Source of the DNA: Octopus vulgaris | Lineage: Eukaryota | Assembly: GCA_951406725.2 (NCBI GenBank) | Contig: OX597823.1 | Location: forward strand, 51,522,001-51,586,000 | Reading direction: 5' to 3' | Length of the DNA: 64,000 bases | Shown: positions 4,033-55,487 of the stretch, piece after piece | How positions within the stretch are numbered: position 1 is the first letter of the stretch | How the letters are laid out: each line of letters opens with the position of its first letter | Position numbers and translations under genes: made by a program | Notes under the pieces: generated by a model | The model's database searches: none | Told to the model about the DNA's origin: nothing | What the model saw: the letters and a program-made list of their open reading frames with translations, nothing else

Positions 4033-4255
4033 TAGTTAGTTAAACCAAACAAGAAAGCACAAAAAACAACACAACAACGCGAGGACGTGGAACAAATATA
4101 GCATTATTGGACGCTCAGGAAAGAAGGAAAGAAGGAGGGTTTAACGTTTCGAGCGGAGCTCTTCGTCAGAAACATAGGAGGAGGAAAGATCCAGAGAAGG
4201 GAAGATCCAGAGAAGGGAAGACAGATGAAAAAAATCGCCAACGGTACACATGATG
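4033..4255 (-). mobile_element. Short PLE-derived (pLTR-like) element in (TA)n with minimal hammerhead
   Basis: Flanked by TA repeats. Contains the HHR at 4139-4173 and the CGCTCAGGAA motif (4112-4121) shared with 28848-28857 and 45955-45964. Confidence 0.7.
4139..4173 (-). ncRNA. Minimal type I hammerhead ribozyme (PLE-type, palindromic ACGU stem III)
   Basis: Reverse strand reads GUUU-CUGACGA-A-GAGC UCC GCUC-GAA-ACGU-U-AAAC. Confidence 0.85.
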
Positions 4256-28743: not shown

Positions 28744-28745
<2 letters not shown>

Positions 28746-28952
28746 CGGGAAGCTTTATGAAAATAGACAAAAGACGAAGGCAGGTTTACGGAAATAAACA
28801 AAAGACGAAGGCAGGTGGAATACAAACAATCAATTGTATTAGTATGGCGCTCAGGAAATATAAATAAAACAAGTCTTTAACGTTTCGAGCCTACGCTCTT
28901 CAACAGAAAGATACACAGAGAAAAAAAACACAGAAAGAAGGAGAGAAAAAAA
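28744..28952 (-). mobile_element. Short PLE-derived element in (TA)n with variant minimal hammerhead
   Basis: Homologous to 45881-46012 (ACAAAAG.CGAAG.CAGGTGG..TACAAA..TATTAG.AT..CGCTCAGGAA..TTTCGAGCCTACGCTCTTC.ACAGAAAG). Flanked by TA repeats. Confidence 0.75.
28874..28911 (-). ncRNA. Minimal type I hammerhead-like motif with A6U core variant
   Basis: Reverse strand UCUUU-CUGUUGA-A-GAGC GUAG GCUC-GAA-ACGU-U-AAAGA. All stems intact; core position 6 is U. Confidence 0.7.
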
Positions 28953-29000
28953 TATATGTATACATATATATGTATGTATGTATGTGTATATATCTCTCTT

Positions 29001-45370: not shown

Positions 45371-45410
<40 letters not shown>

Positions 45411-46336
45411 AGTGGTTCGCTTCCTTGCACGCGATTTTATGCATGTATATATATATATATATTGTTGTATTTGGGATGGTCAATGTCTTTTTTCTTTTGT
45501 TGTTTGTTTTTTCCCAAATTAACACACCCACTATGTATTCGTTCTTCACTCGTTTATTACTGTTCGTATTTTAACTCATGTCCAGTGTCCAGAAAGCTTA
45601 CGTCATATATCTGTAATCTCCTCAGCGGCACTTTCAGTCTTCGTATGTGGACAATAGACATGAGTTAGAATAAGAACAGTAATAAACGAGTGAAGAACTA
45701 ATATATTGTGCGTGTGTTGATTTGGCAAAAAAAAAAATGACCAGCATGCAGTAGTCGCTGTGTGGCAAGTAGGTAGCTTACTAACGACATGGTCCCTTTC
45801 TGTAGAAGAGCGTAGGCTCGAAACAGAAAAGAGCTTTTCTATTCCTGAGCGTTATTCTAATATATCTGTTTGTTTTATATATAAGGAGAGATTACGAAAA
45901 AAAACAAAAGTCGAAGACAGGTGGTGTACAAAACAAACAGATATATTAGAATAACGCTCAGGAAGAGAAAAGCTCTTTTCTGTTTCGAGCCTACGCTCTT
46001 CTACAGAAAGGGACCATGTCGCTAGTAAGCTAGCTACTTGCCACACAGCAACCCCTGCGTGTTGGTCATTTTTTTTTTGCCAAATCAACACATGCACTAT
46101 ATATTAGTTCTTCACTCGTTAATTACTGTTCTTATTGTAACTCATGTCTATTGTCCACATACGAAGACTGAAAGTGCCGCTGAGGAGATTATAGATATAT
46201 GACGTAAGCTTTCCGGACACTGGACATGAGTTAAAATACGAACAGTAATAAACGAGTGAAGAACGAATACATAGTGGGTGTGTTTATTTGGGAAAAAACA
46301 AACAACAAAAGAAAAAAGACATTGACCATCCCAAAT

Positions 46337-46382
<46 letters not shown>

Positions 46383-46412
46383 GCATAAAATCGCGAGCAA
46401 GGAAGCGAACCA

Positions 46413-46414
<2 letters not shown>
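45411..46414. repeat. Long inverted repeat: arms 45411-45876 and 45930-46414, 53-bp spacer, (TA)n on both outer sides
   Basis: Arms are reverse complements with about 16 substitutions counted by eye, plus TA/polyA length differences. Confidence 0.97.
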
Positions 46415-46502
<88 letters not shown>

Positions 46503-46504
46503 TA

Positions 46505-46668
46505 TACGACTGGCTTCTTTTTAGTTTCCGTCCACCAAATCCACTCACAAGGCATTGGTTGGCCCGAGGCTATAGTAGAAGTCACCTGCCCAAGGTGCCA
46601 CGTAGTGGGACTGAACCCGGAACCATGTGGTTCGTAAGCAAGATACTTACCACACAACCACTCCTACA

Positions 46669-47385: not shown

Positions 47386-47770
47386 AGGGCGGCGAGGTGG
47401 CAGAAATGTTGGCACGCCGGGCGAAACGCTTAGCGGTATTTCGTCTGCCGTTACGTTCTGAGTTCAAATTCCGCCGAGGTCGACTTTGCCTTTCATCCTT
47501 TCGGGGTCGATAAATTAAGTACCAGTTACGCACTAGGGTCGATGTAATCGACTTAATACCTTTGTCTGTCCTTGTTTGTCCCCTTTATGTTTAGCCCCTT
47601 GTGGGTAGTAAAGAAATAGGTATTTCATCTGGCTTTGTGTTCTGACTTCAAATTCCGCCGAGGTCGACTTTGTCTTTCATCCTTTCGGGATCGATAAACT
47701 AAGTACCAGTTGCATACTGGAGTCGATCTAGTCGACTGGACCCGCCAAAAAAAGTGGGGACCTTGTGCTT
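47386..47770 (+). mobile_element. SINE family B: head plus two tandem body units (184-bp period)
   Basis: GGTATTTC at 47435 and 47619 each start a unit carrying the B-box and the GCCTTTCATCC body. Confidence 0.93.
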
Positions 47771-54624: not shown

Positions 54625-55487
54625 AGCATAGAGAATATATTCTCTTACACCTGAAGACCACAGCCGACCCACGAACTAACAGCGCACATATTTTGTAGAT
54701 ACGTATTTGATTTTGTTCATATACCTATTTCTTTACTACCCACAAGGGGCTAAACACAGAGAGGGCAAACAAGGACAGACAAACGGATTAAGACGATTAT
54801 ATCGACTCCAGTGCGTAACTGGTACTTATTTAATCGACCCCGAAAGGATGAAAGGCAAAGTCGACCTCGGCGGAATTTGAACTTAGAACGTAGCGGCAGA
54901 TGAAATACCTATTTCTTTACTACCCACAAGGAGCTAAACACAGAGAAGACAAACAAGGACAGACAGACGGATTAAGTCGATTATATCGACCCCAGTGCGT
55001 AACTGGTGCTTAATTCATCGACCCCGAAAGGATGAAAGGCAAAGTCGACTTCGGCAGAATTTGAACTCAGAAGGCAACGGCAGACGAAATACGGCTACGC
55101 ATTTCGCCCGGCGTGCTAACGCTTCTGCCAGCTCGCCCTGGAAGGGCTTCTGAGTCATATTTGAATTCTTCTGTGACATGAAACGTTGGGACATGTAAGC
55201 AGATGCTGTTTAAATCATTTAGCGTATAATCATAGTCGGCGATATGGCTTGTAGCAGGCCTTCTTCGGTATGCAGTGTTGATAAGTCACAACAATGACGA
55301 AATGTCGATGTCTCTCGCTCCGAGAAGGAACCTATGTTTCTTACCTAGCTCGACTATGACTTATGACTATGACTGCTTTTCTGCACCAGGAGCATAGAGA
55401 ATATATTTTTTTACGCCTAAAAACCGCAGCCGACCCAAGAACTAACCGCACACATACCTCGTGTATGTGTTCGATTTTGCTTTCATA
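54625..55487. repeat. Diverged ~95-bp direct repeat (54625-54720 and 55391-55487) separated by a SINE
   Basis: AGCATAGAGAATATATT.T.TTAC.CCT.AA.ACC.CAGCCGACCCA.GAACTAAC.GC.CACATA occurs in both. Confidence 0.8.
54721..55138 (-). mobile_element. SINE family B: head plus two tandem body units (184-bp period)
   Basis: ATACCTATTTCTTTACTACCCACAAG at 54721 and 54905. Antisense head GCTTCTGCCAGCTCGCCC ends at 55138. Confidence 0.95.

Follow-up and report, generated by a model that had tools for sequence, protein, structure and literature searches.

Break repair can leave new inverted repeats in a genome. In the SD-MMEJ model, a 3' end snaps back onto an inverted micro-repeat close by, primes synthesis there and then re-anneals across the break, and a new inverted repeat results (PMC5728401). 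Fold-back inversions at double-strand breaks carry short inverted repeats and a spacer at their centre, and hairpins with spacers longer than 12 nt resist Mre11; the outcomes described in the available part of that report are hairpin-capped dicentric chromosomes and large rearrangements (PMC10622511). Breaks concentrate at TA repeats and are repaired there by MMEJ, with TA tracts serving both as break sites and as repair microhomology. This fragility was shown on cancer ecDNA and was not raised on the linear amplicon there, and the available text makes no mention of inverted duplications (PMC13645644). A further relevant system is the insertion of EN+ Penelope-like elements (PLEs), for which an inverted form with short and long ends (PMC8557442) and minimal hammerheads (PMC4209133) have been described. 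Searches judged by titles and abstract openings brought up no paper on the palindrome content of octopus genomes or on fold-back duplication at the 3' ends of PLEs.

Here we examine a palindrome in a 64,000-nt stretch of the Octopus vulgaris genome (the window), the parts of which are listed in Table 1. Its anatomy is like that of an SD-MMEJ product, with the differences that about 470 nt would have been copied, that it is seen in an assembled genome, and that the rejoining homology would be a (TA)n tract. With fold-back inversions it shares the short inverted repeat and the spacer at its centre, but it is short and appears locally resolved; with TA-repeat fragility it shares TA tracts as candidate sites of both breakage and rejoining. 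Two of its components resemble EN+ PLE insertions: E1, at the centre, apparently the 3' end of a PLE that inserts into TA and carries a minimal hammerhead-like motif, and E2, a head-to-head inverted family with short and long ends. Unlike such insertions, the palindrome is tail-to-tail, includes non-PLE flank and seems to post-date the decay of its repeats, and we therefore do not regard it as the product of an insertion. Scars of this type occur at other repeats of the genome too; the present one is unusually long, and most probably neutral.

Table 1. Parts of the palindrome and its flanks (positions in the window; strand where assigned)
Feature	Position	Strand	Remarks
Outer left (TA)n tract	45373..45409		Likely remainder of the tract that once abutted the E1 3' end; putative rejoining site
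Left arm, likely daughter copy	45410..45876	+	E1 part stops short at GTTTT
36-bp single-locus piece between two TA tracts	45410..45445	+	Mirror 46380-46415
E2 copy, decayed, head-to-head (inverted), of a TA-inserting hammerhead-bearing repeat; the "nested hairpin"	45462..45743		Mirror 46063-46343
E2 decayed hammerhead-like core	45592..45625	-	GAAA box reads GTAA, stem II mismatched, by comparison with family copies
Head of abundant SINE, ~48 bp	45744..45791	+	Mirror 46015-46062
Daughter E1 segment	45792..45876	+	Minimal hammerhead-like motif at 45800-45824, private ACAG variant
Fold-back junction	45877..45883		(TA)3 remnant, can pair with TGTA ~50 nt inside E1; crossed by an X1 contig
Parent E1, 5'-truncated 3' end of putative GIY-YIG Penelope-like element	45884..46014	-	Last 46 nt form most of the spacer
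Right arm, likely parent sequence, continuous with spacer	45930..46415	-	From alignment and family copies
Outer right (TA)n tract	46416..46507		Followed by a SINE head half, minus strand, 46509-46668

Alignment of the arms bore out the first-pass annotation of a palindrome with ~470-bp arms, a 53-bp spacer and (TA)n on the outside of both arms. The arms are about 96% identical, and the spacer measures 47 bp if the TATA/TGTA overlap is counted and 53 bp otherwise. They differ by 17 substitutions, one of them at the junction, by an indel of 1 nt within an A/T run and by 20 nt in the length of the inner TA tract; outside simple repeats, 17 of 440 columns differ. The parent order reads (TA)n-E1-SINE head-E2-(TA)n-36 bp-(TA)n. 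In the left arm E1 ends at GTTTT and is joined to the (TA)3 remnant, so the inner junction offers TATA/TGTA microhomology of 3 of 4 bases, which is weak when taken alone. The long reading frames near the palindrome, inspected by eye, revealed no evident host gene.

Palindromes are hard to assemble, and no contig among the Logan short-read matches listed spans the whole structure; these two points speak for an assembly artefact, or one copy of a mobile fold-back or MITE family. Short-read contigs nevertheless support both arms. In run X1, contigs carry the left-arm alleles at 45677-45814 with no other letters and one gap and the right-arm alleles at 45992-46100 and 46087-46151 with no other letters, and they cross the centre junction over 45835-45921, again with no other letters and with at least 38 letters on each side. 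Run X1 may be the assembly's own sample; it argues against an assembly artefact but does not amount to an independent individual. Among the contig matches listed, in which gaps prove nothing, runs X2, X3 and X5 have right-arm letters only at 45520, run X5 has right-arm letters only also at 45591 and 45613, and no contig of these three runs crosses the junction. An apparent contig joint on opposite strands, 45876>45929, was discarded as a fold-back junction, being ordinary E1 continuity. With both arms' alleles and the junction present in short-read contigs, with 17 arm differences divided between the arms and with markers confined to a single locus, we regard the probability of an artefact or a mobile family copy as close to negligible. 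A MITE or fold-back transposon does not account for the whole palindrome, in that its terminal piece is single-locus.

The single-locus markers also define the event. The ACGT>ACAG variant of E1, together with a neighbouring change, occurs at exactly two places in 2.8 Gb, namely the two arms, and a 23-nt pattern from the 36-bp piece, searched genome-wide with one mismatch allowed, matches both arms only. Because each of these markers is found in the two arms and nowhere else, a single local event is indicated, and the arms, being more alike than any other copy, appear to be a local inverted duplication. The E2 part behaves accordingly in alignment, with 97% identity between the arms and 83% to the best other copy (45-273 of the query). 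The shared ACGU>ACAG change, which had been read earlier as placing the duplication after decay, supports that order of events: the repeats at the locus had probably decayed before they were duplicated. An insertion-time PLE inversion was rejected for the whole palindrome, whose centre is a 3' end and whose arms hold SINE, E2 and single-locus DNA. The SINE-E1 junction recurs in none of the 40 best of 3,316 candidate loci. Another SINE-head-to-E1 junction lies at ~1440-1520 of L045, so that replacement of a SINE body by E1 is not unique to this locus. We did not accept uniqueness in the 1.2 Mb sample as proof of local duplication, L097 proving to belong to a family of >2,000 candidates; the palindrome of L140 is local, with 99% identity between arms and 68-93% to the next copies over short parts.

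Comparison with family copies suggests that the derived changes are about evenly split between the arms (6 left, 7 right and 1 in both), and they show no A>G excess. Five of the 16 non-junction differences sit in 13 nt of the SINE head, 45744-45756 versus 46050-46062 (p=0.004, a post hoc value for a window width picked after viewing the data). Through the private ACGT>ACAG change and its neighbour, what was a quasi-palindrome has become a perfect inverted repeat of 7 bp around a 2-nt loop (45823-45840; mirror 45966-45983), a pattern as expected of a single template-switch mutation.

E1 is abundant, with 3,316 first-look candidates and 6,844 exact matches to one 20-mer in the 2.8-Gb genome. In the aligned copies (L033-L060) TA follows directly on the 3' end, as fits an element that targets microsatellites and has a fixed 3' end. 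The family whose 3' end makes up the spacer is, as had been proposed, that of the element at 28745-28960, a copy from a diverged subfamily. Long E1 copies hold a GIY-YIG frame with an upstream Cx4CxxC motif; the Pfam GIY-YIG matches in the family (E=3e-4 and 9e-4) fall just under the cut-off, and the E1 motif lies downstream on the same strand in 7 of 12 GIY-YIG loci. E1 is thus best described as the probable 3' end of an EN+ PLE, with a C-terminal GIY-YIG domain upstream of the 3' repeat. Five fragments upstream of E1, picked by eye and presumably RT-like by their motifs, gave no Pfam hits. The E1 and E2 motifs had no match in one text file of the Craig et al. supplement.

The hammerhead-like motif of E1 has an extra base after position 9, a G-C closing pair and a palindromic ACGT, features that fit the minimal hammerheads of PLEs as described in the available text (PMC4209133). 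Because the core across the family reads CUGUAGA or CUGUUGA rather than the canonical CUGANGA, predicted hammerhead activity is doubtful even before the ACAG change. An Rfam scan of the window, of which 150 of 334 matches were viewed, yielded microRNA models below gathering score, mostly on simple repeats, and no hammerhead family among those 150. A third hammerhead-like family member, with a canonical CUGACGA core, lies on the minus strand at 4112-4176 of the window.

The "nested hairpin" and the piece just outside it, which the first-pass annotation took for unrelated fragments, proved to be a single copy of E2, a family of 2,556 first-look candidates genome-wide. An intact hammerhead core is present in 7 of 26 E2 loci, and by a strict motif scan 5 of the 26 have a short end together with a long one. 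The family appears to share with EN+ PLEs the head-to-head inverted form, the short and long ends and the hammerhead core. A tblastn search with E1-family fragments attached no RT/EN frame to E2 within the fetched flanks and gave one distant match, in L017.

The short and long ends of E2 raise an RNA-mediated route for the palindrome, in which the PLE reverse transcriptase copied a read-through transcript from an internal "short end" and the 53-bp spacer is a PLE tail. The spacer is similar in size to the 30-40 bp tails of PLEs, but the inversions described in the available part of the same source are at the 5' end, and the palindrome here is tail-to-tail (PMC8557442). There is also no editing-type bias between the arms. 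A programmed short end in E1 was rejected: of 6,844 motif matches, those with TA no more than 30 nt away come from only 39 distinct loci, and the points at which TA begins are scattered. Of these 3'-shortened loci 31 were fetched, and two (L198, L210) face another E1 tail-to-tail. The absence of an E1 short end largely refutes the RNA route, which we judge very improbable.

On balance we favour a reading in which a break in the TA tract at the 3' end of E1 was followed by snap-back priming, synthesis of ~470 nt and TA/TA rejoining, and the left arm arose in this way as an inverted copy of the DNA beside it. The long TA tract that the PLE had used as its insertion site would break, probably after forming a cruciform that host nucleases cut. 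After resection the 3' end, ...TATA, would pair with TGTA ~50 nt inside E1, the terminus of E1 would form the loop that is now the spacer, and a host polymerase would copy ~470 nt. Because (TA)n is self-complementary, the new end, again reading TA, could then anneal to TA on the far side of the break. The role of E1 would be mainly that of a marker of long TA tracts, with the hammerheads as passengers, and the structure has likely drifted neutrally since. The sequence basis of this proposal is the single locus, the TATA/TGTA junction and the presence of TA at both outer ends. A copied tract of ~470 nt far exceeds the insertion lengths generally known for snap-back end joining, and we count this length, together with the 3/4-base primer, against the snap-back step. 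The clustering of arm differences in the SINE head also weighs against this reading, and no allele from before the duplication was seen.

We sampled palindromes in 100 grid-spaced 10-kb stretches (1 Mb; L063-L162), accepting arms of >=50 non-simple bases, spacers of <=300 and identity of >=85%. The sample holds 55 palindromes, some of them nested or independent SINE pairs, and 37 have arms of >=100 and two arms of >=450. Among 23 tight palindromes (>=93%, spacer <=60) the longest arm is 247, as compared to 453 for the present locus, which lies in the long tail of lengths. TA occupies an outer end of 35 of the 55, against 2.9 in controls. Many of the 55 look like PLE head-to-head insertions, and the sampled palindromes are mostly PLE-type or SINE pairs. 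None overlaps any of the 31 E1-type matches in the sample, where chance would give ~0.4, so that a few-fold excess is compatible with 0/55. No clear 3' fold-back was seen among 30 scored E1 copies of the sample (one weak score, L148), and 1 of the 28 best E1 loci faces a diverged copy tail-to-tail. Hammerhead-like motifs number 30 in the 1-Mb sample versus 1 in a shuffle.

A paired-motif pattern for tail-to-tail E1 copies within 135 nt was then applied genome-wide. It found 10 close pairs among ~7,000-10,500 copies; by eye, eight are local duplications, the present locus included, and two are independent insertions. TA stands at an outer end of all eight. Two of them (L217, L221) captured flank as the present locus did; another five do not extend beyond E1 and could have formed at insertion. 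Two SINE anchors, present in roughly tenfold more copies than E1, gave 32 pairs where TA lies 71 nt downstream and 19 where it is ~140 nt away, of which 15 and 15 were fetched. Shared flank or private changes in several of these (L237, L246, L248, L252) reveal the same anatomy as in the E1 fold-backs. By a strict ungapped rule, which misses the present locus, 5 of 10 E1 pairs are local with outer TA in 5 of 5, as are 5 of 15 SINE pairs by short TA (outer TA in 1 of 5) and 3 of 15 TA-distant SINE pairs (0 of 3). The absence of outer TA from the TA-distant SINE fold-backs implies that TA is not required, and the difference between 1/5 at SINEs by TA and 5/5 at E1 implies that E1 may differ in kind.

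The raw per-copy ratio of E1 to SINE is 2.7-4.5 (p 0.05-0.001, with crude denominators). Strict per-copy rates are 4.8e-4 for E1, 0.9e-4 for SINEs by short TA and 0.4e-4 for SINEs away from TA, with denominators extrapolated from 4, 43 and 36 motif matches in 1 Mb; roughly, SINEs fold back 3-5-fold less often per copy than E1. We count the fall of the strict rates with TA context in favour of TA breakage. The TA run is longer at E1-type 3' ends (median 29.5 nt) than at SINEs (11 nt; n=14 and 60, p=0.02), and the longer tract could be the source of the E1 excess. An enrichment of palindrome centres for the element, which the first-pass annotation had made a check of its proposal, is therefore upheld as a per-copy excess over SINEs; that excess is small and is confounded with TA length. 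That the element or its hammerhead typically seeds palindromes is not supported: fewer than 0.1% of E1 copies are affected, none of the 55 is E1-centred, and SINEs have the same anatomy.

These rates also bear on a reading closer to the earlier one, in which a TA-targeting PLE GIY-YIG endonuclease re-cut TA at the old E1 junction and the nicked end snapped back and copied the flank. The ~3-5-fold per-copy excess at E1, the TA at the ends of all local E1 events and the GIY-YIG domain with upstream Cx4CxxC encoded by E1's parent all speak for it. In the available texts, the Cx4CxxC linker is proposed to steer microsatellite targeting (PMC8557442), and a purified PLE protein cleaves AT-rich DNA on both strands at its own ORF-pLTR junction (PMC11167929). 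Against this are the small fraction of copies affected, the same events at SINEs, a TA-length difference in the direction that would explain the excess without an enzyme, and a junction without added new PLE sequence; we consider this reading somewhat unlikely here. In its general form the idea, that Penelope endonucleases which target TA return to the TA junctions of their own dead copies, and that the ends so produced fold back and copy flanking DNA for hundreds of bases, seems to us unlikely. If true, retroelements would drive a mutational process by which long hairpins of host sequence, potential ADAR and siRNA substrates, arise across the genome.

The same sequence would result from a break-free replication template switch at TATA/TGTA, with back-copying and return at TA/TA, or from a perfect TA-centred hairpin one arm of which later lost ~50 bp. 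Some SINE fold-backs lie away from TA (L252, L257), and short-range switches are widespread in ape genomes, but the events in the available text explain substitution clusters at a smaller scale than this palindrome (PMC7954356). Template switching alone does not predict a gradient with TA context, and we hold this origin to be decidedly unlikely. The mechanism first proposed, a local inverted duplication centred on a PLE 3' end that captured flanking DNA, was broadly right, and the private markers and the GIY-YIG linkage support it.

The value of the locus is as a clean record of how long hairpins form in repeat-rich, TA-rich genomes. The gradient from PLE ends on long TA to SINEs by short TA to SINEs away from TA is testable and could separate TA fragility from endonuclease re-cutting. 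The predicted RNA hairpin of the palindrome has an energy of -794 kcal/mol, which is trivial for any such palindrome, and at 55 palindromes per Mb the argument from dsRNA and editing applies genome-wide and is not special to this locus. Cruciform extrusion is unlikely across a 53-bp spacer with 4% mismatch.

Other inverted structures were noted along the way. Most close tail-to-tail SINE pairs in L253-L266 look like independent copies without a centre, and their lost centres are consistent with central deletion of palindromes. In L151:9055-9470 a SINE tail has undergone a complex inverted rearrangement, with multiple switches, around TA tracts, and L084:6846-8131 is a palindrome with 612-bp arms (86%, 15-bp spacer) without a match in the sample. 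Within the window, 47391-47744 and 54784-55137 form a 354-nt inverted repeat pair, 88% complementary and 7 kb apart.
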